Made by a program: the position numbers and the translations under genes
Virus record (IMG/VR): IMGVR_UViG_3300037467_000874
Origin: an uncultured virus (IMG/VR IMGVR_UViG_3300037467_000874)
Lineage: Duplodnaviria > Heunggongvirae > Uroviricota > Caudoviricetes
Strand: one strand, 5' to 3'
DNA length: 55,156 nucleotides
Notes under the pieces: model-generated
Databases searched by the model: none
What the model was told of the DNA's origin: nothing
What the model saw: only the letters and a program-made list of their open reading frames with translations
Shown here: positions 8,645 through 55,154 of the stretch, piece by piece
How positions within the stretch are numbered: the stretch's first letter is position 1
Layout of the letters: each line of letters opens with the position of its first letter

Positions 8645-9037
8645 TTAATACCATACTCCCAATTTTTTAATTCTTTTTTCAAGCTTTTTCTTAATTCGTC
8701 TATTCTTTGTGCGATTCATAATTTTTTCAAGTCTAAAAGATTCAATGACTGAAGGATGATATGCCATATCAAATCCAAAAAGATATTTAATTCCTTTTGC
8801 ACTAATATAGACATCATCTGCTGTTAATGTGATTCCATCACTAAAACTTGAAGGTGAAAAGAAGGTGCTTTCATATTCTTTTTCAAACTCTACACTAACG
8901 TTTGAAACATTAAAATCGCTAATTGACCCAATCTCTTCACCAGTCTCAAGATCATAAAATTTTGCATCTGAAATATTTTTAGGACATTTAAAGCACATAT
9001 TAATCACCCTCTCTTTCATAACAATCTGGCAAAGCAT
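8645..9037 (-). CDS. Hypothetical protein
   Basis: ORF in the gene run; likely start MCFKCP. Confidence 0.6.
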   Translation of the reverse strand: MLCQIVMKERVINMCFKCPKNISDAKFYDLETGEEIGSISDFNVSNVSVEFEKEYESTFFSPSSFSDGITLTADDVYISAKGIKYLFGFDMAYHPSVIESFRLEKIMNRTKNRRIKKKLEKRIKKLGVWY

Positions 9038-17500: not shown

Positions 17501-18634
17501 TTATCCCACAATTTCCCCTACTAAGTCAAGGCATTTCTGAAGAAGTTCAACATCATCAATCTTAGAATAATTAGCCGTACCTCCAAGAATTGTTTTAAAA
17601 CCAGATGTGACTTTTACTTTTTGCTTGGAATCAAGAGCTTTAACAGCAGTATTGAGAGATTCAATTAGCTCTTCAGCGGTTGCAGAATCACTTCCGCTTT
17701 CGGATTTATAAGAATCAATATACTCTTGTGCCGCCGCTTCACGCTTCTCAGCTTGTTCACGCTTGATTTGTTCAAGGTTTACACCAGAATCAAATTCAGA
17801 CTGAACAGCATTTCGGAAGACTTCAAGAAATTCTTGCACATCATATTCGATACGATTAGGAACATTTTGAAAGCGAGAGCCAGCAATGGAAACGTAGTCA
17901 TCGCTACGGAAGTTGATGTACCTTTTAGATACTAAGTTTTTGCCACTCTTCTCCGCTTCAACAGTAAGGAATACAATAAAGTCTGCCATATTAACAAACA
18001 CTTCATTAGCACTTGCAGAAAGCGATAGAGTCAATTGGTCATATGTTGCACCATTTTTCTCTTCTACTTTTTTATCTTTGCTATGAGTAATTGCAAAAAT
18101 TCCATAACCAGCTTTTTGCAGTTTGGCAATAGAATCTCTTACTTTTTTCTTTGCCAGATTCGTCCCAACTCCGAAGCCTTGATTACTATTTCCCTTTGCT
18201 CCAACTCCACCAATTTCATTAGTACGTTTAGATGGATTTTTAGCATTCCACTCTTGAATTACAAGATCAATTGCCATATCCATCATAATATCAACTGTGT
18301 CTAAAGCAAGGAGCTTGAGTCCATATTCTTCTTTGTTTTCTACAAGATCGTCAACAATATCCTCCCAGTCATTCCAGTCATCAACATCAACAGCTTTGAC
18401 CTTCAGGGCCGAATATCCTTTTTCAAAACCAATAATCAATCCGCTGTCAGTATTTCCAAAGTATTCTTCAGCAACTTTTGCGAACAGTGACGACTTACCA
18501 GCCTTAGCGACCCCCGCAACTACCCAAAAATAATCTTCAATCGCAACCTTTGGTACATTTACTTTAAGATTTTTTAATTTAGACATATTATTTCCTCCTG
18601 TGAATTTTTTAGATTCACAGGAAGCATTCTTCAT
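17501..18634 (-). CDS. AAA_24-type P-loop ATPase (SPbeta YorG / Sak4-like)
   Basis: GVAKAGKSS, FEKG, LALDTVD, ITHSKD, AGSRF. Likely start MSKLKN, preceded by AGGAGG. Confidence 0.8.
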   Translation of the reverse strand: MKNASCESKKFTGGNNMSKLKNLKVNVPKVAIEDYFWVVAGVAKAGKSSLFAKVAEEYFGNTDSGLIIGFEKGYSALKVKAVDVDDWNDWEDIVDDLVENKEEYGLKLLALDTVDIMMDMAIDLVIQEWNAKNPSKRTNEIGGVGAKGNSNQGFGVGTNLAKKKVRDSIAKLQKAGYGIFAITHSKDKKVEEKNGATYDQLTLSLSASANEVFVNMADFIVFLTVEAEKSGKNLVSKRYINFRSDDYVSIAGSRFQNVPNRIEYDVQEFLEVFRNAVQSEFDSGVNLEQIKREQAEKREAAAQEYIDSYKSESGSDSATAEELIESLNTAVKALDSKQKVKVTSGFKTILGGTANYSKIDDVELLQKCLDLVGEIVG

Positions 18635-29217: not shown

Positions 29218-30192
29218 TTATGTGCGGCATTCGTCACAATATTCATCTTCTTCATAAAGACTTTCTATTGTCTCAATGTTGCAATAGTCTTTAACGGAAT
29301 AAATATTTTTAATGTTAAATCTTTCGGCAAGTGGTCTAAACTTTTCATAATCAAACTTTCTATTATGAAACATCCCCTTTGCTCTGTGTAGTATTCCTGA
29401 ACGAAGAATATTTTTTCCTGTGAAGTATGGAATACCAAGTGTTTCACTGATAACTTTAAGTCTTCTGTATACAACTGAAGATTGAACAGCGCCACTGTAG
29501 TTATCAGTTTTGGTAACTGAGTTACGAAGTACATAATCATTTTCTACTAATGTTGTAAATTCTTTAATGTTTTCAGTGACTTCCATTTGACCATTTCTCT
29601 TTGTGTAAGTTTTTTCACTCAATGCTTCCTCGATCAATTTGATGGTTCTGTCAGAAACTTCAATGCTTCTTGCGAGCATTCCTTTTTCATTTCTTAAATG
29701 TAAGATGTTGTTTTTAAAGTCAACATCAAATTTGTTTAGATTTCTGATTTCACAAGAATCTTTACCCGCTACACCTTCGAAATATAGTCTGATAATTACT
29801 GCGTCTTGTGCATTCTCACAGAATCGCTCAATCTCTGTTATCTCTTTCTCAGTGAAGTATAACTTTACAGACTTGTCAACGAATTTGTCAAACCATTCTG
29901 AATCAACAAGCTTCAATGGATTCATGACAACCTTCTTGTATCCTGCATCAATGCACCAAGATATATAAGATGTTACAATCCTGCCATTTGATCTAGATAT
30001 GGCGCTTGTCAATGGTGCCAAATCTGAAAGAAAGTCCTCTATTTCACTCTTTGAGAATTCAGCTAAATCTTTGCCAAGAACTCTCTCTGTATCAGCACTT
30101 TTAATGAATATTCTCTTGTAGGTTGATTTAGAATCTTCATTTTCATACATATTTAAGAACAATTCTTTGATATCTGCATTGTAAAGCTCCAT
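29218..30192 (-). CDS. YopR/MrpR (SroF)-like phage repressor with tyrosine-recombinase fold
   Basis: Collinear with SPbeta YopR as I recall it: YNADIKE, KLYFT, IRLYFEGV, LVENDYV, ILRSG, YSVKDY. Lacks the catalytic Arg (GKDSCEI) and the HxxR motif. Confidence 0.8.
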   Translation of the reverse strand: MELYNADIKELFLNMYENEDSKSTYKRIFIKSADTERVLGKDLAEFSKSEIEDFLSDLAPLTSAISRSNGRIVTSYISWCIDAGYKKVVMNPLKLVDSEWFDKFVDKSVKLYFTEKEITEIERFCENAQDAVIIRLYFEGVAGKDSCEIRNLNKFDVDFKNNILHLRNEKGMLARSIEVSDRTIKLIEEALSEKTYTKRNGQMEVTENIKEFTTLVENDYVLRNSVTKTDNYSGAVQSSVVYRRLKVISETLGIPYFTGKNILRSGILHRAKGMFHNRKFDYEKFRPLAERFNIKNIYSVKDYCNIETIESLYEEDEYCDECRT

Positions 30193-30995
30193 TAGTTGAC
30201 ACTCCCTTGTAATTTGAGAATGTTGTAAAGTCTTTTGATCTCATTCAAGTTATAATTTTTTATTTCCAATTCAACTTTCATGTTAAAATCATTTTGTCTT
30301 TCTACAACATATGCAAGAGCGTTCAAATAGTGAATTCCGTTTATTATATCAATCTTTCCGTTGCTAACTGTCAGTGTTCTATGTTGAGGGCTGTAGGCAA
30401 TATTTGAGCTATCACGTAGTATATTTACAACAATTGGTCCAACAATTGCTTTATTCGCCATGATATCCTTGGCAATTGTTTTAACTTCTCTCATATTGAT
30501 GTCAATCGTTTTAACCATTTTCCCAACAACATTCTTTTCAAACTTATAATTCTTAGTTACTTCGTAATTATAGTTCAACAAATTCGCGTTGTAAAGTTTT
30601 ATTAGTGTTTTCACATTTTCAAGAAGCACATAATCATTATCATTTGACTGCATTACATTTTTGAAAACAATTGGATATTCGACAACTTCGACATCTTTCG
30701 ACTTTATTCTGCTTTTCGCTTTTTCAATTTCTTCTTTTGAGAAAAATCCGTAAGGATTGATGATCATTAATTGTGTTACATGGTGAACAGCTATTGTCAG
30801 AAGACAGAACACTTCATTGTCAAGTTTGTCAAGTCCGACAGTTCCATTGATAATTCTTTGAACTTTACCTCTCATAACTCCGTGTTTGAACATTTCTTCC
30901 TTTACCGATTCTACCTTGTGCCTGTCAAATTTGATTTCCTGAAGAACCTTTCCAAGAGTTTCTTCGAACTCTGCTTTGCTTACTTTTGTCATCAT
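30192..30995 (-). CDS. YopQ (SroE)-like ParB/DndB-fold protein, shortened, with degenerate DGxHR motif
   Basis: LLNYNYE...IIN GIHYLNA at the DGxHR position; directly upstream of the YopR-like gene, as in SPbeta. Confidence 0.6.
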   Translation of the reverse strand: MMTKVSKAEFEETLGKVLQEIKFDRHKVESVKEEMFKHGVMRGKVQRIINGTVGLDKLDNEVFCLLTIAVHHVTQLMIINPYGFFSKEEIEKAKSRIKSKDVEVVEYPIVFKNVMQSNDNDYVLLENVKTLIKLYNANLLNYNYEVTKNYKFEKNVVGKMVKTIDINMREVKTIAKDIMANKAIVGPIVVNILRDSSNIAYSPQHRTLTVSNGKIDIINGIHYLNALAYVVERQNDFNMKVELEIKNYNLNEIKRLYNILKLQGSVN

Positions 30996-36803: not shown

Positions 36804-36819
36804 TGTTTCACGTGGAACA
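36804..36819. promoter_or_regulatory. parS: parS site (Spo0J/ParB binding)
   Basis: TGTTTCACGTGGAACA. Confidence 0.85.
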
Positions 36820-43722: not shown

Positions 43723-43784
43723 CTCCCTTAATTTTTTTGGTCACGCGACACAAAAGAGGCGCATAGTTAGCGCCTCTTCACTGT

Positions 43785-44027
43785 TTAATACACTTTCTTT
43801 TCTTCTCCTGTCCACGCCTTAACTTGTTCTTGGACCATTGAAATGACACCTTTTGTAAGCTTTGCAGGTTTCATCCCTTTGATAGTCGTGACTAGTATTC
43901 TGTCCTTTTGATCAGGAATTTGGAAATGGACATAATGCCGTTTGCCAGCCTTATCATACAGGAATGCATTGCCTACAATGATTGACTTCTCCATTGTCCA
44001 AGTCGCATTAGCCGTTGCCGTTGTCAC
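43785..44027 (-). CDS. Hypothetical protein between two repeat elements
   Basis: 80-aa ORF between cores at 43751 and 44069. Confidence 0.65.
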   Translation of the reverse strand: MTTATANATWTMEKSIIVGNAFLYDKAGKRHYVHFQIPDQKDRILVTTIKGMKPAKLTKGVISMVQEQVKAWTGEEKKVY

Positions 44028-44128
44028 TGTTCATCACTCCACGTTGTTATTTGCGGTTATCCGCTACACTATTATTCTATTAATGAGAGAGTAGCTTTAT
44101 GCTACTCTCTCAAATTATTTTTACTGCC

Positions 44129-44362: not shown

Positions 44363-46417
44363 TTAAACCGCTTCTTCCTCATTTTCTTCAATTTCTTTGT
44401 CTTCATCAATAACAGCTTCTAATCCCATTTCTTCAATGAATCGACTAGCACCACAATCTTTTCCATTGAATGTTGACGTTGAAGAGAGGAAGCATAACTG
44501 TTTAGCACGTGTTACCAGCACATAAGCAAGTCTTCTTTCCTCTTCAATTGCTGAATCATCACCACAAATTTCCTTTTCAATTGACTTGTAGTGCGGAAGA
44601 AGATTTTCATTTACACCAATTCCAAAAACAACTTCAGCCTCTAATCCTTTACTACGATGAACTGACATCATCTGAACGCCATTGACACTAGAACGTCTTT
44701 TCTTAATCATCATGTCAACATATTTCACAAGACTGTCAAGCTTTTCAAAACGGCTTGCAAAGTGAATCATTTTGTTAACGATTGGATTTTCCTTTTCTTC
44801 TTCGTCTTCATCATCATTCTTTTTCAAATGTTCAGCATAACCATTTTCAAGCAAGTATTTAATTAAATCTGCCGCCGTTTTGTTATCTTCTTTCATAAGC
44901 TGTTTCATGCTGTTAACCAATACTTTGAAGCTGTTACTTGCTGTTTTTTCTGTAGGCGTAAGATTTACTTTGTTTACTGCATCCCACAAAGAACACCCTT
45001 TAACTGCCTTCAATTTAGCAAGGTATGCTTTACCTACATAGCGGCTTGGAGTATTGTATACTCGTTCAAATGCTTCATCGTCACTTGTATTCAGTACAAG
45101 ACGAAGGTATGACATAATATCTTTTACTTCTTTGCGCTCATAAAATGACATACCGCCATGAATAACGTATGGAATGCCATTAGAGATAAGAACATCTTCA
45201 AATTCTTTGTTTTGAGCATTGGTACGATAAAGTACAAACATGTCTTTGTATTCAATGCCTTTAATTTCTTTCAACGTCTTAATTTCCTCTACTGCCTCAT
45301 TTGCTTCTTCTGTTTCATTTTTATGGTGCGAGTAGAAAACAGCCTTGCCATCTGCTTGACTATGCGGAATAAGCTTCTTTTGAATTCTGAATTTGTTATT
45401 TTCAATTAGTTTGTTTGCAACATTCAGAATTTCAGGATGGCTACGATAATTATGCTCCAAGCCAATCATTTGAACATTTGAAAACAGTTTGTCAAATTGT
45501 ACGAAAGATTCAGGCGAAGCGCCACGAAAGCTATACATGGATTGATCGTCATCACCAACAACAAAAATGTTGTTTTCAGGATGAATAAGTTTTTTTGCTA
45601 ATTCGTATTGCGTAGGATTGTTGTCTTGTGTTTCGTCAATCATAATGTACTTAATTTTACCTTGATACTTTTTAAGAATTTCTGGATGTTCACGAAACAA
45701 ACGAACAGTGAGGAAAAGCATATCATCACCATCAATTGCAAGCCTTGCATATTTCATTTGTTCATATTGCTTGTAAAAGTTAATGTATGCCCACATTGTA
45801 GGAGAGGCATCCATTGCGTGTTCTGCTTCAAATTGATTGCAATCCATACCTTTGTTCTTTGCATTCCCAACTACTGCTAACAACACTTTGTTGTGTGCAT
45901 CTTTTAATGCCTTCTTTACGTCTGCTTCAATCATAAAGCTTTTAAGCAAGTTCTGTTTTACTTCTTCAGCAAACCACATTTGACTGTTACCAATAAGAAC
46001 ACCGGGATTTTTTGCATCACGCTTCGGATTGCAAAAGTCCTGCAAAGGATGGTTCATTGCTTTGTATTCACGTGCCAATACTTTATAGCCAAACGAGTGA
46101 GAAGTGCCACAAAACATTGCTTCTAAATCTGTTTTACTAATAAGAGGCTTCAAACGTTCTTCCATTTCAGTAGCGGCTTTTTTAGTGAATGTCATAAGTG
46201 CAATTGAATCAGAAATGATGTTAAGTACGTTAATCATGTACGCTGTTCGCGTAGTAAGTACGCGCGTTTTTCCACTTCCCGCTACTGCACAAATTTGAAT
46301 TGCACCTTCCGTTGCAAGAACAGCTTTCAATTGCGATTCATTCAATCCTTTGAGTAATTCATCTTTCATTGGTACTACAACCTTTTTTGGTGTACGTGCC
46401 ATCTTCATCATCTCCAT
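44363..46417 (-). CDS. pcrA: UvrD/PcrA-family SF1 DNA helicase
   Basis: AVAGSGKTRVL, TFTKKAA, IDETQD, VGDDDQSMYSFRGA, NYRS, LYRTNAQ, SVHRSKGLE, EEERRLAYVLVTRAK. Confidence 0.93.
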   Translation of the reverse strand: MEMMKMARTPKKVVVPMKDELLKGLNESQLKAVLATEGAIQICAVAGSGKTRVLTTRTAYMINVLNIISDSIALMTFTKKAATEMEERLKPLISKTDLEAMFCGTSHSFGYKVLAREYKAMNHPLQDFCNPKRDAKNPGVLIGNSQMWFAEEVKQNLLKSFMIEADVKKALKDAHNKVLLAVVGNAKNKGMDCNQFEAEHAMDASPTMWAYINFYKQYEQMKYARLAIDGDDMLFLTVRLFREHPEILKKYQGKIKYIMIDETQDNNPTQYELAKKLIHPENNIFVVGDDDQSMYSFRGASPESFVQFDKLFSNVQMIGLEHNYRSHPEILNVANKLIENNKFRIQKKLIPHSQADGKAVFYSHHKNETEEANEAVEEIKTLKEIKGIEYKDMFVLYRTNAQNKEFEDVLISNGIPYVIHGGMSFYERKEVKDIMSYLRLVLNTSDDEAFERVYNTPSRYVGKAYLAKLKAVKGCSLWDAVNKVNLTPTEKTASNSFKVLVNSMKQLMKEDNKTAADLIKYLLENGYAEHLKKNDDEDEEEKENPIVNKMIHFASRFEKLDSLVKYVDMMIKKRRSSVNGVQMMSVHRSKGLEAEVVFGIGVNENLLPHYKSIEKEICGDDSAIEEERRLAYVLVTRAKQLCFLSSTSTFNGKDCGASRFIEEMGLEAVIDEDKEIEENEEEAV

Positions 46418-46483: not shown

Positions 46484-46533
46484 GTCCATCATCATTTATT
46501 TTTGTATTTGTGTATACCGCGACACTGCTCGCA

Positions 46534-46824
46534 TTATGCGAGCACGTGAATTGAATCAATGATTGGACTATCTTCATCGTTAAGATTGAATATTCCGTAA
46601 TAATCAATTTCTTCGCCCAACTCATGAATTCCCCATTCAATCAATTCCTTCGCCACACGTTCATTGCTCCAATGTTTAGGCGTCGAATATGATTCGCCTT
46701 CAAAGACTTTGTTGTCTTCCATTTTAACAACGAAGCGCCAATAAGTACGTGTAATATCTGAATCAACTTCAACTATTTGTCCTTTAGACATACCACATTC
46801 GAATACAATAATCATTTCAATCAT
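46534..46824 (-). CDS. Cassette gene, hypothetical
   Basis: Between cores 46525 and 46852; stop codon lies within the hairpin. Confidence 0.7.
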   Translation of the reverse strand: MIEMIIVFECGMSKGQIVEVDSDITRTYWRFVVKMEDNKVFEGESYSTPKHWSNERVAKELIEWGIHELGEEIDYYGIFNLNDEDSPIIDSIHVLA

Positions 46825-46881
46825 CCCCTAAAGTTTAATGGTACCGCAACACAAGCGGACAATTAATGTCCGCTGTTTAGG

Positions 46882-47319
46882 TTAAATCATTCTATTCAGT
46901 TTCATTGAAGCAAGCAAGCGTAATGCATTTTCAAACAATAATGTAAGTTGAACATCTGTTTGATTGTAGTCGAATGGAATCTTTTTGCCGTCATACGTCC
47001 CAGCATTATATCCAACACGTAAACTAACATCCTTTTCCCATGTCTTTCTATTGTAAGTATCAGAAATTGCAATTTTCCATCCATCACTACTCCATGAAGT
47101 AGGACGATCGGCAATGCGAATCAATGCACCATAACAGCGGTCATTATTATTAATTGCATCTTTTGTTTCCACAACTTTAAAGATTGATTTAAATTCTGTC
47201 ATGTGCTTGTAACAGATGGAAAGGAAAAGTTGTTCAACTTCTTCCTTTCTTACATGTGTAGCATTAACAGCGTTTTGTTTTTCTTCTGCACGTTTTACTA
47301 CATCTGCTAACAATTTCAT
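46882..47319 (-). CDS. Cassette gene, hypothetical (start moved to the second Met)
   Basis: The MDDK prefix in the ORF track derives from the repeat's RBS segment. Confidence 0.7.
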   Translation of the reverse strand: MKLLADVVKRAEEKQNAVNATHVRKEEVEQLFLSICYKHMTEFKSIFKVVETKDAINNNDRCYGALIRIADRPTSWSSDGWKIAISDTYNRKTWEKDVSLRVGYNAGTYDGKKIPFDYNQTDVQLTLLFENALRLLASMKLNRMI

Positions 47320-47348
47320 TTTATCATCCATCCTCTATTGTTTGATAA

Positions 47349-47364
47349 TGTTCCACGTGGAACA
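47349..47364. promoter_or_regulatory. parS: parS site inside repeat element
   Basis: TGTTCCACGTGGAACA. Confidence 0.85.
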
Positions 47365-47392
47365 ATGCGAAGTCCGCAACACAAAACCCGCT

Positions 47393-47692
47393 TTATTCGG
47401 CGGGTTTAGTAATGTTTTTAAAATATTCTTGGAATTCTTCTAATCTTCCAGCCTTTTGAATCTCACCAATTGTTAATGTTAAATCATCGAATGTAGCAGT
47501 TTTTACATATTCTAATCTGTCTGCAAGCATCTTTTCCTTTGACCCATTAGTCTTGTTCTTTGCAATTACACATTTTTCTCTAATATGATACTCCAGCATA
47601 TTTCTACCGAAATATTTTTTACAATGTGGACATTCTGCTTTTGTATAAGCCACTTTTCTTCTGCCCATTTTACAACACCTTCCATTCTCCAT
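47393..47692 (-). CDS. Cassette gene with zinc-finger-like motif
   Basis: CPHCKKYF...LEYHIREKC; stop in hairpin loop; likely start MGRRK. Confidence 0.7.
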   Translation of the reverse strand: MENGRCCKMGRRKVAYTKAECPHCKKYFGRNMLEYHIREKCVIAKNKTNGSKEKMLADRLEYVKTATFDDLTLTIGEIQKAGRLEEFQEYFKNITKPAE

Positions 47693-47951
47693 CTTTGTCC
47701 TTATACTTCATGTAAGTACATCCTGCATATCCTGCCGCCCAGTCAAGCGGCTGAAATGCTTTTGATTCGCCTGCATTAATCCAAGACGTTTCACCATCGT
47801 AATACAGATTGTCATCGTCATCATAAAGTTTGATTTTTGTTTTTTCTTCTTTAGGCAATTCATCCCATTTTTTTTGATCGAAGTTAGCAGATTGAATGTT
47901 AATCTTTTTCTTGTCTAGCCAATCATAAGTAATACGCCACATATTCATCAT
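47670..47951 (-). CDS. Cassette gene, hypothetical
   Basis: KLYDDDDNLYYDG...PLDWA..YAGC motif. Confidence 0.75.
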   Translation of the reverse strand: MMNMWRITYDWLDKKKINIQSANFDQKKWDELPKEEKTKIKLYDDDDNLYYDGETSWINAGESKAFQPLDWAAGYAGCTYMKYKDKDGEWKVL

Positions 47952-48001
47952 TCCTTTGTTTTATAATGGTAACGCGACACGCGCCAATTAAGGCGCTATG
48001 C

Positions 48002-48250
48002 TTACAAATTATCTTCATCCTCTTCAACACTGGAATGAATGTTTGATATTGCATTGTCCACGTCCTGCATTGCTTCGCGCAATGTCGTAAGTGCTTCATA
48101 TAAATTCTGTAAATCATTAGCGTAATAGTCCGCTTCTTTCGTTTTATCCAGTATATCGGAAATTTTGTTTTCCAGCGCTTCAACCTTGTCAATGTTTCTA
48201 ATAAACTTGTTTGCCTCTTCACCTAATGCTACAATTCTTTTCGCGTTCAT
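48002..48250 (-). CDS. Cassette gene, coiled-coil acidic protein
   Basis: Between cores 47980 and 48296. Confidence 0.7.
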   Translation of the reverse strand: MNAKRIVALGEEANKFIRNIDKVEALENKISDILDKTKEADYYANDLQNLYEALTTLREAMQDVDNAISNIHSSVEEDEDNL

Positions 48251-48312
48251 TTTATCATCCATCCTTCATTGTTATTTGTGGTATGTACCACGACACAAGC
48301 CGCATAAGCGGC

Positions 48313-48522
48313 TTAGTCAATTTGTCCTCTAACGTCGAATGCAATTTCATGCTGTTCTGATATAGCTACAACACGTGTAAATTCTACTGTTTCGCCTTCA
48401 ATAATTATACCAAAATTATACATGTTGCTTGCAATTTGTTGTGCATTCTCATAACCAGTATGGAAATGTTGGGCATGAATTACCCTATCATTTACAAAAC
48501 AAACGAAATACCAATTCTGCAT
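48313..48522 (-). CDS. Cassette gene, hypothetical (start MQNWY)
   Basis: Flanked by identical 27-bp direct repeats. Confidence 0.65.
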   Translation of the reverse strand: MQNWYFVCFVNDRVIHAQHFHTGYENAQQIASNMYNFGIIIEGETVEFTRVVAISEQHEIAFDVRGQID

Positions 48523-48577
48523 ATCAATCATTCCTTTTTCTGTTATTTGTGGTATGTACCACGACACTAGCGGCTGT

Positions 48578-48667
48578 TTATGCCGCTAATTTGTAGAATA
48601 ATAAGAATAATCCATTAATGAATGCTAGGACCAATAAGCTACGATTTAAACGATAGTTGTAATTCAT
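48578..48667 (-). CDS. 29-aa hydrophobic peptide
   Basis: MNYNYRLNRSLLVLAFINGLFLLFYKLAA; GGAGG RBS; ATGA overlap; stop in hairpin loop. Confidence 0.5.
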   Translation of the reverse strand: MNYNYRLNRSLLVLAFINGLFLLFYKLAA

Positions 48668-48807
48668 TTAACAGCCTCCATTAACTCTTTATTGCTGTTC
48701 TGTTTAGCACGGCACCATAAACATAATGTATTATTTGGTATGTTGCTTGTAATTCGTTCTTTGCATCCAACACAAGTATAAGTATGTTTTACTTTAATCT
48801 TTTTCAT
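48664..48807 (-). CDS. 47-aa zinc-ribbon-like cassette gene
   Basis: MKKIKVKHTYTCVGCKERITSNIPNNTLCLWCRAKQNSNKELMEAVK, after the element RBS. Confidence 0.6.
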   Translation of the reverse strand: MKKIKVKHTYTCVGCKERITSNIPNNTLCLWCRAKQNSNKELMEAVK

Positions 48808-48911
48808 CATCATCTATCCTTTACTGTTTAATGTACCGCGACACAAGCCGCATGTAAAACATGCGGCTGTTTGTGTTATTTCATATCTGTAATTTCGCCG
48901 CGACTAGAAAA

Positions 48912-49166
48912 CTAGTCGCCAATAAATGATAACTGTAATGCCACTGATTTAATAGCGGAAATAATTTCATTAATCATAGTGTCATTAACTTCTTCAACGT
49001 CATAGTATTCTAATTCGATTAACTCTTTTAAGCTTTCGTGTTCTAGTCCTCTTACTGGTATGTAGAAAGCTTTAGAATATTGTTTGTCAAATAGTACAAC
49101 ATCTGTATTGCCAGCCATTTCAACGTAAACGTTAATTATTGCTGTTTTAATGTTTTTCATTTTCAT
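48912..49166 (-). CDS. Cassette gene, hypothetical
   Basis: Between cores 48844 and 49198. Confidence 0.7.
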   Translation of the reverse strand: MKMKNIKTAIINVYVEMAGNTDVVLFDKQYSKAFYIPVRGLEHESLKELIELEYYDVEEVNDTMINEIISAIKSVALQLSFIGD

Positions 49167-49317
49167 CCATCCTCTATTTTATAATGGTCACGCAACACTG
49201 CCGCGACATGCGCGGCATACTGTTTTACTCGTTAATTGTTTAATTTGTTCAATTGTCATACTTGCCATATTCATCATTCCCTTACTGTTATTTGCGGTAT
49301 GTCCGCAACACTTGGAT

Positions 49318-49333
49318 TGTTTCACGTGAAACA
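49318..49333. promoter_or_regulatory. parS: parS site (perfect palindrome) forming the element hairpin
   Basis: TTGGAT-TGTTTCACGTGAAACA-ATCCAA. Confidence 0.9.
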
Positions 49334-49347
49334 ATCCAATAAAACAT

Positions 49348-49557
49348 TTAAAGCATTACAAATGTTTCGTTCTTGCCTTCTGTTACGAATAAACTTAAAC
49401 CGTCATAATGTACATAGAGTAAATCCATGCCGAATGCTTGACGTTTATGTAATACACGTTTAACTGTTTTCTTTGTTCTGTTAAAGAGTGAAACAGGAAC
49501 AATAATATCTACACTTTGACCAACTTTGTTTAATGCGTTATCTGTTACTTTAATCAT
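49348..49557 (-). CDS. Cassette gene, hypothetical
   Basis: Between cores 49311 and 49597. Confidence 0.65.
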   Translation of the reverse strand: MIKVTDNALNKVGQSVDIIVPVSLFNRTKKTVKRVLHKRQAFGMDLLYVHYDGLSLFVTEGKNETFVML

Positions 49558-49627
49558 TTTATCATCCATCCTTTGTTATTGTAGTTTGACGCAACACAAG
49601 CCGCATGTAAAACATGCGGCATTCTAT

Positions 49628-49879
49628 TTATATTTGATAAACTTTCTTTAATGCTTTCTTTGCTAATGTTTCAATATGACTATCGTTACAGTCATATTTT
49701 TTGTACCATTCACAAATAGTATTGCTTCCAACTACTGCATATAAGCAATCCCATGCAAGCCTTGTTTCAAAGTCCTTAAATTTTCCACTTTCTTTCAATG
49801 CTATCGCGTGTTTTCCAATCTTCTCTTTAATTTCTTCCATTTTATCAACTACATTTTGAAGCTCATTTTGCAATTTCAT
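49628..49879 (-). CDS. Cassette gene, hypothetical
   Basis: KDFETRLAWD...CNDSHIET; between cores 49597 and 49919. Confidence 0.75.
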   Translation of the reverse strand: MKLQNELQNVVDKMEEIKEKIGKHAIALKESGKFKDFETRLAWDCLYAVVGSNTICEWYKKYDCNDSHIETLAKKALKKVYQI

Positions 49880-49946
49880 TTTTCATCCATCCTTTAACTG
49901 TTTAGTGGTAACGCGACACGCCACGTTATATACGTGGCATTGTGTT

Positions 49947-50234
49947 TTATTCGACAATGTAGCAATATTCTACAATCCATCGCGTTCCTTCACTTGGAAG
50001 CAATCTCATGTACAAGTCAAGGCGAACGCCTAAATCTATACCGTCCAAGCAGTTGCCAATAAGAGACATGCCAATCATACTATCATCGAACCATTTTGCA
50101 TCGCTTGAAACTTTGTAAGAACGTTCTTCATGTGTGTAAGTATTCCCGTCAAAACTCTTTTGATCGAATACAATAACAGCCGTTTTCCATTTATCTTTAC
50201 GCTGTTTCAATTCTTCAAGCGTCAATTTAATCAT
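49947..50234 (-). CDS. Cassette gene, hypothetical
   Basis: SLIGNCLDGIDLGVRLD...WIVEYCY. Confidence 0.75.
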   Translation of the reverse strand: MIKLTLEELKQRKDKWKTAVIVFDQKSFDGNTYTHEERSYKVSSDAKWFDDSMIGMSLIGNCLDGIDLGVRLDLYMRLLPSEGTRWIVEYCYIVE

Positions 50235-50281
50235 TCATTCATCCATCCTTTTTGTTTTAGAGTGTAACGCGACACAAGCGG

Positions 50282-50413
50282 CTATTTAGCCGCTAAAAAT
50301 GAGATAGCATAAATGATAGCAATTAAAGCTAATGTAAATGGGATAGATATAATAGAAATAAAAATAATTAAATCCATTTTCTTATAGTTTTTCAATTCTT
50401 GCATAGTCATCAT
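50282..50413 (-). CDS. 43-aa single-TM cassette peptide
   Basis: MMTMQELKNYKKMDLIIFISIISIPFTLALIAIIYAISFLAAK; stop within the hairpin. Confidence 0.6.
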   Translation of the reverse strand: MMTMQELKNYKKMDLIIFISIISIPFTLALIAIIYAISFLAAK

Positions 50414-50473
50414 TCCTATTCTGTTTAGTTTGGTTTAACGCGACACGGCACACTGTTTAGTGTGCCTAGTGTT

Positions 50474-50902
50474 TTAAACATCGTCCCCACAAACTTTACA
50501 ACCAAAATCTCCACATTCACATTCTTCTTCTTCAATTTTAAACCATCCAATACAAGCTCCATCGCCTTCACTACTGCCGAAATAATAGCCGCTAGGCGCA
50601 ATGTTGTTGAAATAATTATAAACGTCTTCATTCCAAACATAAGAAGCTGATTCATATGCACTTTCTTGAATTGTAGCTTCTCCATGATATTGTGACATGA
50701 ACAAGCCATGACTTTCAACATATTCCATGTCCTCAATGTTGAAGCATGTAAGGATAGAGGCGCGTAATTCTTCGTTAGCTTCCATGCCTTCTAATAAATC
50801 ATACGCTTTAGGTAATATGTGCTGAAGATTGCATGTGCCATCGCTTAAAATAAATCCACCATAAGATTTAACAATAGATTGAAAGTGTTCTACTTTAGAC
50901 AT
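50474..50902 (-). CDS. Cassette gene, hypothetical
   Basis: APSGYYFGSSEGDGACIGWF motif. Confidence 0.75.
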   Translation of the reverse strand: MSKVEHFQSIVKSYGGFILSDGTCNLQHILPKAYDLLEGMEANEELRASILTCFNIEDMEYVESHGLFMSQYHGEATIQESAYESASYVWNEDVYNYFNNIAPSGYYFGSSEGDGACIGWFKIEEEECECGDFGCKVCGDDV

Positions 50903-50954
50903 TTGTCATCCATCCTTTGTTTTTGTTTTAGCGGTTTTACCGCGACACAAGCCG

Positions 50955-51143
50955 CTATATATTAGCGGCTGTTTCTTTAAATAGTTGTTTAAGGCATTCA
51001 TAACATAGTGGAATACGCTGTTTATTAACAACACTTTCAAATGTCACTTCATGTGTAGATATTGCATGATGGCAAGAAAAGCAAACTATTTTAACTTCTT
51101 TGCCTTCGTAAAAGCTAGTTTCAATTTCATTAACTTTAACCAT
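50955..51143 (-). CDS. Cassette gene with CxxC...CxxC
   Basis: CFSC...LCYECL; stop within the hairpin. Confidence 0.7.
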   Translation of the reverse strand: MVKVNEIETSFYEGKEVKIVCFSCHHAISTHEVTFESVVNKQRIPLCYECLKQLFKETAANI

Positions 51144-51208
51144 TTTTCATCACTCCATCTATTTTAGTTGTCACGCGACACGCCACGCTGTTTAGCGTGG
51201 CAAGATTA

Positions 51209-51562
51209 TTACATGAATACTTCAATTTCAAAGAATGATTTATCTTTATAAAGAACACGTAAAACTTTACTTATTCCATACGTTTTCAATTCGAATTTTT
51301 CGAAGTTGCCGTAAAAGTTTTCTGTACCGTCAAATAATCCGCTGTTACGTTTTCTTAATTGAATGCAAAAACCTTCGCGATTGCATGATGTCTGAATTTC
51401 AAACGAATGAACGAAGCCAGCAATAACAACAAAAGTTTCATCGCTGTTAGGCATGCATGTTTTCATATGCAACTTTAGCGGTTTCCCCACTGCTTGCACT
51501 AAAAACGCTTCTACATGTTCGAAGCCTTCAACGTCTGTAATAAGTTGTTTTTGTTCTTGCAT
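51209..51562 (-). CDS. Cassette gene, hypothetical
   Basis: Between cores 51181 and 51604. Confidence 0.7.
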   Translation of the reverse strand: MQEQKQLITDVEGFEHVEAFLVQAVGKPLKLHMKTCMPNSDETFVVIAGFVHSFEIQTSCNREGFCIQLRKRNSGLFDGTENFYGNFEKFELKTYGISKVLRVLYKDKSFFEIEVFM

Positions 51563-51616
51563 TTGTCATCCATCCTTTAAGTTTTGTCGGCAGTGCCGCA
51601 ACACGTTTCACGCGAT

Positions 51617-51632
51617 TGTTCCACGTGAAACA
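51617..51632. promoter_or_regulatory. parS: parS site inside repeat element
   Basis: TGTTCCACGTGAAACA. Confidence 0.85.
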
Positions 51633-51643
51633 TTTTGTTTTGT

Positions 51644-51877
51644 TTAAATTTTCTCAAATAAATAAGCTGGCTTAACTTCGTATTCAATATATCCATATAC
51701 CTGCATACTTGAAATGCCTTCCCGTGCTGGTACTTCACTTTCTTCTATTTCCCATTTTGTCAATGGAGGGAAATAATTTGTTTTAACTGCAACATCAAAT
51801 AATCCATCGCTACGATGGGCAATTGATACATGCACATATTTATTAATTTCCACTGTTTTCCTTTTGATAATTTCCAT
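51644..51877 (-). CDS. Cassette gene, hypothetical (start MEIIKR)
   Basis: Start adjusted to follow the element RBS. Confidence 0.65.
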   Translation of the reverse strand: MEIIKRKTVEINKYVHVSIAHRSDGLFDVAVKTNYFPPLTKWEIEESEVPAREGISSMQVYGYIEYEVKPAYLFEKI

Positions 51878-51948
51878 ATTCATCATTCCTATTCTGTTTA
51901 GAGTATGACGCAACACAAGCCGCATAAATACTATGCGGCTGTTTAGGT

Positions 51949-52236
51949 TCAATCTAATTGAACGATTGTAACATTTAATGATGAAAGATATTTTCCGTGA
52001 TTACCTCCACTTACATAGTCATCTAAAAAACCATCGTTTTCTATTTCTTTTCTTTCTTCTTCTGTTAAAAATAATCCATTCCAATTTTGAGATTCTGCAT
52101 AATCAATAGCAAAATCTAATGCATCTTGTTCATAGTCAGCATTAACAATAACGTAATTAAATTCAGATAACCAAACTTTGTATGAGTGCTTCCAAAACTT
52201 CGACGTTTCGTTAACATAGATAAATTCTGTTTTCAT
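51949..52236 (-). CDS. Cassette gene, hypothetical (start MKTEFI)
   Basis: EQDALDFAIDY...GGNHGKYL; start adjusted to follow the element RBS. Confidence 0.7.
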   Translation of the reverse strand: MKTEFIYVNETSKFWKHSYKVWLSEFNYVIVNADYEQDALDFAIDYAESQNWNGLFLTEEERKEIENDGFLDDYVSGGNHGKYLSSLNVTIVQLD

Positions 52237-52291
52237 TTTCATCCATCCTTTAAGTTTTAGTGGTAACGCGACACAATGGAACATTTGATAA

Positions 52292-52307
52292 TGTTCCACG
52301 TGAAACA
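52292..52307. promoter_or_regulatory. parS: parS site overlapping element hairpin
   Basis: TGTTCCACGTGAAACA. Confidence 0.85.
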
Positions 52308-52309
52308 TT

Positions 52310-52480
52310 TTAACTAATTGATTTATTCCATTTTTCAATAATGACAAGCTTTTTAACTTTTTCGTCAACTACGTAATATGAAATGTCTTTGACTGTAAAC
52401 CCGTTTTTCTCTTTTGTTTCAATAAAAGAATCTACCTCATTCGAATTTACAACATGTTGTTCTTCTACGTATAATCTCAC
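52310..52480 (-). CDS. 56-aa cassette gene (GTG start)
   Basis: MRLYVEEQHVVNSNEVDSFIETKEKNGFTVKDISYYVVDEKVKKLVIIEKWNKSIS; flanked by identical 39-bp direct repeats. Confidence 0.65.
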   Translation of the reverse strand: MRLYVEEQHVVNSNEVDSFIETKEKNGFTVKDISYYVVDEKVKKLVIIEKWNKSIS

Positions 52481-52546
52481 TTTTCATCCATCCTTTAAGT
52501 TTTAGTGGTAACGCGACACGGCCCGCTGTTTAGGCGGGCACGTCTT

Positions 52547-52759
52547 TTAATCCTCTTCCTCTTCTTCTGTTTCCTCTTCTGTTTCCTCTTCCTCTTCAAA
52601 AGAGAAATCACATTCATAATGTGCGAATGCTTCCAGCGTTTCGCATGATGCGTCGCCGCTTAAATAATGATATAGAATGTATTCTAATATTTCTGTATCA
52701 GAAATACCACGTTCCCGCAATGCTTCCAGTCTTCTCACGGCTTCATTTCTCATGCTCAT
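52547..52759 (-). CDS. Cassette gene with poly-acidic tail
   Basis: C-terminus EEEEETEEETEEEED. Confidence 0.7.
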   Translation of the reverse strand: MSMRNEAVRRLEALRERGISDTEILEYILYHYLSGDASCETLEAFAHYECDFSFEEEEETEEETEEEEED

Positions 52760-52809
52760 TGTTCATCCATCCATTCTATTTTTTAGTGGTAACGCGACAC
52801 TGCCCAAAT

Positions 52810-52825
52810 TGTTTCACGTGGAACA
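52810..52825. promoter_or_regulatory. parS: parS site forming the element hairpin
   Basis: GCCCAAAT-TGTTTCACGTGGAACA-ATTTGGGC. Confidence 0.9.
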
Positions 52826-52841
52826 ATTTGGGCCTAGTTGT

Positions 52842-53069
52842 TTAGCCTTTTGGGGAACATGTTTCAAGCCATACAGGATGGCCCCATGAATAACATTGCT
52901 TTTCTGTTATGTCGCCGTCTTCATATAATGCCTGCACAAAGTTATTCCATGCCATGCGACGTGCTGGTTTATCAATAATTCCATTAGATTCCAAACCGCG
53001 AATAAGCCCCGGCAGTATTTCCATTTTAAACATTGTTTCCGCTTCTACTTTAGTCATACTATTCATCAT
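52842..53069 (-). CDS. Cassette gene, hypothetical
   Basis: DKPARRMAWNNF...DGDITEKQ..W.HP motif. Confidence 0.75.
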   Translation of the reverse strand: MMNSMTKVEAETMFKMEILPGLIRGLESNGIIDKPARRMAWNNFVQALYEDGDITEKQCYSWGHPVWLETCSPKG

Positions 53070-53131
53070 TCCTTTTATGTTATTGCGGTATGTCCGCTAC
53101 ACTGCCCGCTGTTTAGGCGGGCCTTACAATT

Positions 53132-53521
53132 TTAATAAGCATTAATACCATATTTGCGGCACAATACAAGGAATTCACGAATAATCAAGGAATTATAAAA
53201 CGTTTGTTCTTCATTACCTTCGCGTTCCTTGTATTCTTCGCCGCAATTTTCAAACCATTGTTGCAAAAGTGCGCTAATTGCATAGTGACGATATTCAACG
53301 CTAATTTCAGAAGGCAAGCCCATGAACCAATCAGCCATAGCCGCCCATCTGTTAGGATTCTGTTTCTTTTCATATGCATCGTACCAGTTATTGAAACCGT
53401 CTACAACGTTTTGTAATTGTTCTTTAACGTCATTTGTTTCTTCATCTGACATAATGTATAAAATATGTTCTTGTACTTGTTCCTTGAATGCTTTACGTGT
53501 CGTTACTGCCATGTTCATCAT
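53132..53521 (-). CDS. Cassette gene, hypothetical
   Basis: DWFMGLPSEISVEY motif. Confidence 0.75.
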   Translation of the reverse strand: MMNMAVTTRKAFKEQVQEHILYIMSDEETNDVKEQLQNVVDGFNNWYDAYEKKQNPNRWAAMADWFMGLPSEISVEYRHYAISALLQQWFENCGEEYKEREGNEEQTFYNSLIIREFLVLCRKYGINAY

Positions 53522-53544
53522 TCCTGTTCTGTTTAGGCTAGAAA

Positions 53545-53560
53545 TGTTTCACGTGAAACA
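53545..53560. promoter_or_regulatory. parS: parS site (perfect palindrome) inside repeat element
   Basis: TGTTTCACGTGAAACA. Confidence 0.9.
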
Positions 53561-53603
53561 TTTTCCGCAACACTGCCCACTATATCAATAGTGGGCAACC
53601 TGT

Positions 53604-53804
53604 TTAAGAAAAACGGCTTATATTAACAACATAACCAGCCTCACAAAGTAAATCTATTACTTTTGATACCTCTTGCATCGAACTAACGACATGACTACCA
53701 TTAACAGCAACGAAATATAAAATATCATAAATGCGTCCTCCATTTGACATTTCGTATGCCTCTTGTTCACGATTTATAAAAGCTTCGCATTCTACTACAT
53801 ACAT
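53604..53804 (-). CDS. Cassette gene, hypothetical
   Basis: Between cores 53573 and 53843. Confidence 0.65.
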   Translation of the reverse strand: MYVVECEAFINREQEAYEMSNGGRIYDILYFVAVNGSHVVSSMQEVSKVIDLLCEAGYVVNISRFS

Positions 53805-53851
53805 TGTTCATCCATCCTCTATTGTTTAGTGGTACCGCAACACAAGCCGCA

Positions 53852-54082
53852 TTAAAATGCGGCATAGTCATTATCGAAGTCTTTAGCAATCAATAGTTCA
53901 GCGCTATACAATCCGCTGTTCATGCTATCCAGTAAATCGCCGCATGACATTTCATAACCAAATTTGCTATGCTTCCATGTTCCTGCTTGCGTTCGTGTAA
54001 AGTAGACAGGAAAACCAATACCCGTATCCATTTTTACATACGCGTTTTTCTGTTTAAGCTGTTCCATTGTAAATTGTGTCAT
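53852..54082 (-). CDS. Cassette gene, hypothetical (start MTQFT)
   Basis: Flanked by identical 36-bp direct repeats; stop within the hairpin. Confidence 0.7.
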   Translation of the reverse strand: MTQFTMEQLKQKNAYVKMDTGIGFPVYFTRTQAGTWKHSKFGYEMSCGDLLDSMNSGLYSAELLIAKDFDNDYAAF

Positions 54083-54152
54083 TTTATCATCCATCCTCTA
54101 TTGTTTAGTGGTACCGCAACACGCTACGCTGTTTAGGCGTAGCTTATTAAGG

Positions 54153-54419
54153 TTATTCAATAGCGGCAAGCCATGGCGAACCATATTTAACGCATTCATC
54201 CAAATATACGCGCCTGCCTTGAATCGTGAAATATTGACGTTCTTCTTTGTCCTCTTGAATTTTAAATTTGCGAATATCTCCGCTGTCAATAGATGCAGTG
54301 ATGATATCAAAGTCTAAATGGTTAATAGTCCAAACTTCGATTTTAGCATGATACGAAGTTGCGCAAAGTGCATAAGGCTTGCTAGGTTGTTCTTTCATTT
54401 CCTCTTTTGTAAGTCTCAT
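54153..54419 (-). CDS. Cassette gene, hypothetical
   Basis: RQYFTIQGRRVYLDEC motif. Confidence 0.7.
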   Translation of the reverse strand: MRLTKEEMKEQPSKPYALCATSYHAKIEVWTINHLDFDIITASIDSGDIRKFKIQEDKEERQYFTIQGRRVYLDECVKYGSPWLAAIE

Positions 54420-54473
54420 TGTTCATCCATCCTTTAAGTTTTGTCGGCAGTGCCGCAACACGTTTCACGCGAT

Positions 54474-54489
54474 TGTTCCACGTGAAACA
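54474..54489. promoter_or_regulatory. parS: parS site inside repeat element
   Basis: TGTTCCACGTGAAACA. Confidence 0.85.
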
Positions 54490-54496
54490 TTTTTAT

Positions 54497-54658
54497 TTAA
54501 CTGTTTACTTGTTTTACTTTGCCTTGTTTGTATTTGTCCGGCGGATATGAAAGACGAACAGTAGAACGAGCACTTTTTTCGCTTTTCACATTATGTACAG
54601 TTATCCATTGTCCACTATATTTATTGCCGATTTCCCATACTGCTACTTGATACGTCAT
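54497..54658 (-). CDS. 53-aa cassette gene
   Basis: MTYQVAVWEIGNKYSGQWITVHNVKSEKSARSTVRLSYPPDKYKQGKVKQVNS, after the element RBS. Confidence 0.65.
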   Translation of the reverse strand: MTYQVAVWEIGNKYSGQWITVHNVKSEKSARSTVRLSYPPDKYKQGKVKQVNS

Positions 54659-54704
54659 TTGTCATCCATCCTTTAGCTGTTTAGTGGTCACGCAACACAA
54701 GCCG

Positions 54705-54917
54705 CTAAAAATCAGCGGCCATTTCTTCCAATCCTTTAACTACACTTTCGACTGTTAAGCAAGTGTAACCATTTTCGAATTCATAGCGCTCTTTGCCTGT
54801 AAAAGAATCAGACATGTCGTAAACAATTCCGAATGGCGTATGAACGGCGTTCCAATCGACATTATATTCAATAGCCGCATTATCTAACGCTTTAAGCAGT
54901 TTATTATTGATTATCAT
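54705..54917 (-). CDS. Cassette gene, hypothetical
   Basis: Stop within the hairpin; between cores 54698 and 54975. Confidence 0.7.
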   Translation of the reverse strand: MIINNKLLKALDNAAIEYNVDWNAVHTPFGIVYDMSDSFTGKERYEFENGYTCLTVESVVKGLEEMAADF

Positions 54918-54948
54918 TTTTCATCCATCCTCTATTTTTAGGCTAGAA

Positions 54949-54964
54949 TGTTCCACGTGAAACA
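54949..54964. promoter_or_regulatory. parS: parS site inside repeat element
   Basis: TGTTCCACGTGAAACA. Confidence 0.85.
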
Positions 54965-54986
54965 TTCCGCAACACAAAAGCCGCTG

Positions 54987-55154
54987 TTATTCAGCGGCTG
55001 TTTCTTCGTTTCTATCATTGAAATATTTCGTATACTTTTGCAATTCGTATTCCGTTAATTCATCATATGTAGTACGTTTCATGAATTCCAGAACAGCCAT
55101 ATTGTCAATGACTACCAAACGAAATAATGGGCTATCATCCATGCGCGTTCCTTG
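54987..55154 (-). CDS. Partial cassette gene (5' end probably outside the window)
   Basis: Open frame ...QGTRMDDSPLFRLVVIDNMAVLEFMKRTTYDELTEYELQKYTKYFNDRNEETAAE*, with stop in the hairpin loop. Confidence 0.6.
   Translation of the reverse strand, partial: QGTRMDDSPLFRLVVIDNMAVLEFMKRTTYDELTEYELQKYTKYFNDRNEETAAE

Follow-up and report, generated by a model that had tools for sequence, protein, structure and literature searches.

We examined a 55,156-nucleotide window (the whole stretch of DNA analysed), whose reverse complement makes up the first 55 kb of an uncultured virus record of 169,219 bp (IMG/VR IMGVR_UViG_3300037467_000874, here G000). Its minus strand carries an array of repeated intergenic elements (46518..54999), nearly each of which precedes one small gene. 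We think it probable that these genes are promoterless cassettes, similar to those associated with the PeSL elements of T4-type phages, and that parts of the elements are copied locally between neighbours within limits set by homology. On sequence grounds, G000 is an SPbeta/Tsamsa-like phage of the Gram-positive siphophage type; soil and rhizosphere metagenomes contain it (11 runs are listed, X1–X11, six of them flagged as possible sources).

The array comprises 28 elements – 27 within the window, with cores ending between 46525 and 54975, and one just beyond its end (G000:168768). Read in the sense of the genes, an element runs from a stop codon through a GC-rich hairpin, 0–3 nt, a GTGTYGCG core and an A/C-rich spacer, which often contains TAAAC, to a ribosome-binding site (RBS) and a start codon; the core thus separates a hairpin half from an RBS half. 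The hairpins are real, with z below -2 in 25 of 28, and a T-rich tail (at least 5 T among the 8 nt that follow the stem) is present in three of the 28. Sigma-A promoters are not in excess within the array (37 sites versus 45.9 in shuffles), and consensus promoters, though present elsewhere in the genome, are absent between the array genes.

We envisage that the elements punctuate, at the RNA level, one long early transcript lacking internal promoters. A hairpin would end each gene and might serve as a processing or stability mark, and the unstructured spacer with its strong RBS would open the next gene. Because the elements are the sole homology between otherwise unrelated genes, homology-driven recombination would swap, add and remove cassettes at them, as it does at PeSLs.

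Identical halves of neighbouring elements

An earlier note on this DNA had drawn attention to three pairs of adjacent elements, each flanking one gene, as perfectly identical over 27, 39 and 36 bp, and we confirmed all three (coordinates below are on the minus strand). The copies of pair 1 (48270..48296 and 48541..48567) consist of the core plus 19 nt and lose identity short of the RBS; they flank a gene of 69 aa without a PHROG match (48313..48522), which has a hairpin at its 3' end (48297..48333). A small stem in both copies reads GTGG/CCAC, where elements 49311 and 53102 have GCGG/CCGC. Pair 2 (52236..52274 and 52481..52519) extends from the core through the RBS, takes in one base of the start codon, its first, and flanks a 56-aa gene with a GTG start (52310..52480), 3' of which lies a hairpin with a parS site (52276..52311); a third neighbour (52781..52800) has 20 nt on the core side in common with both copies. 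Pair 3 (53808..53843 and 54087..54122) runs from the core through the end of the RBS and flanks a 76-aa gene (53852..54082) whose stop codon is held in a hairpin (53846..53863). The identical blocks span core to RBS end in two of the three pairs, and reach an AATAACA box in the remaining one.

Such identity is concentrated among neighbours. Four of the 378 pairs that 28 elements can form share 25 or more bases leftward from the core, and three of these four are adjacent (P=0.0014; 200,000 permutations of element order, with a mean of 0.28 adjacent pairs by chance). At 20 or more shared bases, adjacency holds for four of six pairs (P=0.00025). Restricting the test to the 27 in-window elements gave P=0.0016, and at 30 or more bases two of three pairs were adjacent (P=0.016). 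The comparison of identity with array distance that the earlier note had proposed, made separately for the two halves, showed enrichment among neighbours only in the tail of exact identities; mean similarity is not raised, either for RBS halves (P=0.24) or for hairpin halves (P=0.90).

Identity does stop immediately after ACAC in all three pairs, the next base differing in each. As a sign of mechanism, however, this stop carries little: the base is not the same in 236 of 351 element pairs, such that three of three would be expected with a probability of 0.30. The exact stop is uninformative because the variable hairpin begins there.

Exact repeats are not confined to these pairs. The array contains 41 of 18 or more bases and six of 27 or more, and three of the six do not end at the core, which speaks against a crossover there. 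One is a 71-bp repeat of a whole element – RBS half, core and hairpin – shared by 51566..51636 and 54423..54493, nine elements apart. Another is a 27-bp hairpin-side repeat (48841..48867, common to 49594-49620) in which the RBS halves differ, and the third a 28-bp RBS-side repeat (47316..47343, common to 54079-54106) that falls short of the core. Identical blocks of the whole-element, hairpin-only and RBS-only kinds thus occur between unrelated genes, and identical halves stand before unrelated genes. Tandem duplication of whole cassettes is ruled out, since the array proteins are not paralogues of one another (best E 0.05) and the hairpins are not duplicated.

Cassette exchange in relatives and, probably, in the array

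Two relatives, G001 and G002, have the same syntenic layout as G000: leader, small-gene array, helicase. In the window a PcrA/UvrD-like helicase gene (44363..46417, minus strand) ends the array as in both relatives, and two outlying elements, with cores ending at 43751 and 44069, lie past it (43744..44107, minus strand). Genes in the arrays of G001 and G002 are separated by long bulged hairpins and AAAGGATGAT-type RBSs, and G-U pairs in these hairpins are biased to the mRNA strand (18:7 and 27:8). Gene content differs between the arrays, near-identical elements (90–93%) stand between different genes, and elements (12 and 19, respectively) become less similar the further apart they lie (Mantel P 0.003 in one and <0.0002, or 0 of 5,000, in the other).

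Comparison of G001 with G002 yielded a clean filled/empty site at G001 gene 61310. The empty side has a single chimeric element whose junction lies in a hairpin-arm box shared by both, and the RBS halves on the filled side differ – not the junction that crossover at a core, as the earlier note proposed, would leave. A second gene loss in the relatives ends at the RBS. This filled/empty pattern is, as far as the two sequences indicate, the PeSL pattern. Homology-driven cassette exchange at elements is directly visible in the relatives, and we infer it for the array of G000.

Under this explanation, the identical neighbour halves would have arisen by local copying of the stretch between the core and the RBS or TAAAC box, both of which are common to all elements. 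Identity would end at ACAC because homology ends there. Copying could accompany the capture of a new gene with its hairpin, through one exchange at the RBS and one at the core, or, as a variant, integration of a circle with conversion. Short-range gene conversion could have the same result, and the two routes are not separated here.

A number of observations weigh against this explanation. G001 and G002 both lack the GTGTYGCG core and so serve as analogues. No near relative with this array turned up, and none of the three flanked genes yielded an empty site. Specifically, a blastn search of phages with 46500-54400 returned no hit; pattern scans of further sequence (88 stretches, at least 120 stretches, and 275 rechecked loci) returned nothing or single chance matches; one identical contig (G004) stops within the helicase; the core is absent from the early regions of Tsamsa and PBC2 and the element family from the pPLP3 region examined; and the array gene at 53132-53518 is missing from five further records examined. 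No 271-bp skip, as an empty site of pair 1 would produce, is listed among the contigs, which were built with a 31-base word and cannot reveal an empty site for pairs 2 and 3. Similarity in the window shows no general decay with distance (P=0.24; Mantel P=0.10). Neither GC nor codon use sets the flanked genes apart, and that of pair 3 (80-aa form) is found on 10 contigs versus 8–10 for its neighbours, which gives no sign of a recent insertion; the genes of pairs 1 and 2 were absent from the collection searched, with the starts tried. The window hairpins show no significant strand bias (G-U 4:1, an uninformative count), the antisense strand folds better in 20 of 28, and the shared boxes measure only 8–10 bp.

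A putative leader RNA and competing explanations

Just beyond the end of the window, upstream of the array, lies a GC-rich folded non-coding leader of ~760 nt (G000:168005-168770; L097:18705-19470). No other 700-nt stretch of the genome is as GC-rich (0.52 vs 0.35), and the leader contains no long frame, folds with z -3.6, and matches no Rfam family and no phage. A candidate promoter with a 19-base spacer is located at G000:167971, where a strict promoter scan missed it. Folded leaders also precede the arrays of G001 (L265:12693-13437, z -6.2) and G002 (L268:13740-14532, z -7.0); these belong to no Rfam family. The two are clear homologues of one another, and when their sequences are aligned, both partners have changed in 18 of 105 predicted pairs. 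Comparing the window leader with them gave z 1.2 and 3.1 (block shuffle), no nhmmer hit and no covariance model match, and in the G002 leader the nine bases directly after the candidate -10 box are identical to the window leader. Clusters of AAGCGCTT palindromes, which we take to resemble CcpA cre sites, are found upstream of the leader promoter (G000:167271-167866) and likewise before the G001 and G002 leaders.

One leader loop, noticed by eye before any statistical testing, gives the strongest antisense match to 27 of 28 RBS halves (mean 31.1 vs 20.7 +/- 1.2; 0 of 200 shuffles). Its site ranks best of 6,767 same-strand genome windows for complementarity to the RBS halves and is predicted to be mostly unpaired. 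One scheme built on this loop, which we rate as unlikely, is that the exposed anti-RBS sequence pairs with every array RBS half and switches the cassette row together, with new genes joining by acquiring a neighbour's core-to-RBS half; the duplication described in the earlier note would be the trace of this. If the loop were functional, one RNA would control ~28 unrelated early genes via their ribosome sites; we found no description in the literature searched of one RNA controlling such a gene row via RBSs.

The loop also offers a rival account of the identical halves, to which we give equally little credence: selection for complementarity to the leader would make new genes adopt the resident RBS half and would keep neighbours alike. 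The G002 leader, with two ATCATCC loops matching 14 of 19 elements (P=0.04), provides a weaker case of the same kind, but the G001 leader has no anti-RBS site (P=0.46). The window leader is not complementary to the core or the hairpins (P=0.58 and 0.32), 34 of 173 other genes score 25 or more against the site, and the site may itself be left over from an inverted element or serve a short antisense frame as its RBS. Selection alone would leave the adjacency of the pairs unexplained. A different rival, improbable in our judgement, has the core serve as the operator of a DNA-binding protein, the MrpR-like repressor or some other, with the duplications incidental. The window encodes an MrpR-like protein of tyrosine-recombinase fold (29218..30192, minus strand), at most 40% identical to homologues from Tsamsa-, PBC2- and SPbeta-like siphophages; among named homologues the nearest (52%) comes from a Paenibacillus phage-plasmid. 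PMC10516654 describes SPbeta MrpR as a repressor, from a family whose recombinase activity has been lost in SPbeta, and as binding a repeated 15-bp element. That element sits in promoter regions, whereas the core here stands in a promoterless array, and the core is absent from G001 and G002 despite their MrpR homologues (51% and 47% identical, respectively). Collapse of the assembly into identical copies seems hardly credible: the repeats of 36–39 bp are longer than the contig word, but contigs of runs X1 and X7 break on both sides of the repeats and each flanked gene is at normal depth, so we do not regard the repeats as an artefact.

The earlier note had explained the identical pairs by crossover at the GTGT/ACAC core, which would insert or excise a cassette and duplicate the RBS half. 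Its cassette model survives insofar as elements mark cassette boundaries and their halves have separate histories, hairpin and RBS halves being uncorrelated (Mantel P=0.27); its account of the duplication does not. A conservative exchange would shift core, RBS half, gene and hairpin together and leave no copy, and since the genes that follow identical halves are unrelated, another break, near the RBS, has to be assumed for each pair. Site-specific crossover at the core by a phage tyrosine recombinase therefore strikes us as rather unlikely, slightly more so than either role for the leader. In its favour, the core is invariant, the adjacent blocks of 20 or more bases end there in four of four cases (a result with a chance of 0.20), and G000 has two tyrosine-fold genes, the second being a recombinase gene at G000:142105-143157. 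Core sites of tyrosine recombinases consist of inverted binding boxes flanking a 6–8 bp spacer, but the core here has no dyad symmetry (paired fraction 0.17–0.33 at 22 offsets). The nearer of the two genes is the MrpR-like one, and no serine resolvase, IS110 recombinase or reverse transcriptase was matched in the genome. Of the junctions in the relatives, one lies in the hairpin arm and one at the RBS. A 734-nt contig of run X9 provides a case of a boundary beside the core: its final 656 nt are identical to 50940-51595, and in it the hairpin and core of element 50948 are joined to a different RBS half and gene start. Joints of equal depth (5.32) connect this contig with an RBS half of the 54461 type and with the beginning of gene 53132-53518, and we infer that they belong to the G000 record. 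This rearrangement adjoining the core favours the boundary of the earlier note over homology-bounded copying. In lower-depth joints the RBS halves are mosaic further inward, possibly from a related phage; short joints of low depth and bins without cover were not used as proof.

Known systems and further features

PeSLs, as described in PMC2839356 and PMC4122927, combine an intergenic stem-loop with a Shine-Dalgarno sequence before orphan genes in a variable region of T4-type phages, and crossovers have been mapped to several positions within the element (PMC2839356). The array of G000 shares the repeated intergenic motif before orphan genes (28 elements, with gene content differing in G001 and G002), the stable stem-loop, the Shine-Dalgarno at the 3' end of the element and, on our reading, crossovers at several positions within it. 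The single chimeric element that PeSLs leave at an empty site was observed in the relatives, at one site in G001 versus G002. PeSLs also have terminator or attenuator activity, set against which three of the 28 hairpins here have a T-rich tail, and give excised mini-circles, rare forms that contigs would drop. The array differs in lacking the sigma-70 -35/-10 promoter of PeSLs or any sigma-A equivalent, in its poor U-tracts, invariant 8-bp core, embedded parS sites and long folded leader, and in its setting in a Gram-positive siphophage. The array works like PeSLs yet is not classed with them because it lacks their promoter. Our favoured explanation would extend PeSL-type gene shuffling, in a promoterless form, to SPbeta/Tsamsa-like phages. 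The identical neighbours would be datable, PCR-testable events that show how orphan genes gain expression signals. In the literature searched, neither an array of this kind nor a leader like this one was described for these phages.

Integron attC arrays are rows of promoterless single genes with varied hairpins between them and one upstream promoter, a layout the array reproduces. No integron integrase is encoded by the phage (TIGR02249 scores 27 at best, against a cut-off of 265), and the array has mosaic breakpoints and no visible paired core and inverse core. attC sites fold from the bottom strand with paired R boxes; on inspection, the hairpin bases here showed nothing complementary to the core. 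In the early regions of T7 and SPO1, a transcript processed by RNase III carries hairpins ahead of strong ribosome sites. A single early transcript punctuated in this way is also what the array suggests, and the long bulged hairpins of G001 and G002 fit well, but the stems in the window are short ones that directly adjoin a conserved core.

Phage phi29 carries multiple host-type parS sites, used for spore entrapment according to PMC2731898. G000 also carries several, but 9 of its 11 distinct parS-type sites (consensus from PMC7022226) are built into cassette elements. The palindromes lie inside hairpins or RBS halves at 47349, 49318, 51617, 52292, 52810, 53545, 54474 and 54949, with others at 36804 and 39840. 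None was present in the G001 and G002 regions examined, and PBC2 has one near-match.

Other features of the elements include genes that run into them: at 46534, 50282, 50955, 53852, 54705 and 54987 the stop lies at most 11 bases from the next core, so the last codons and stop of these six genes come from the hairpin. In a 113-bp unit (49198-49311), an RBS and a start are followed by a frame of no more than 28 codons, which reads into the next core; it is possibly an emptied cassette. The motif CTAAACA is clustered in 46500-54972 (17 of 29 gene-strand matches in the genome) and recurs in hairpin loops with differing stems, as if recognised by an RNA-binding protein. In PBC2, a terminal small-gene region has a repeated linker of hairpin plus RBS (L091:5236-5290 and 8850-8904) and also holds a homologue of gene 53132-53518.

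The genome as a whole gave no match to sigma-70 region 2. A possible Sak4-like annealing protein is encoded at 17501..18634 on the minus strand (phrog_124, E 2e-29; a terminase-labelled family scores slightly better). The gene beside the MrpR-like one (30192-30995) has a predicted ParB/DndB-like fold (TM 0.72), and a Tubulin/FtsZ-family gene (L096:2883-4013) fits a phage-plasmid lifestyle.

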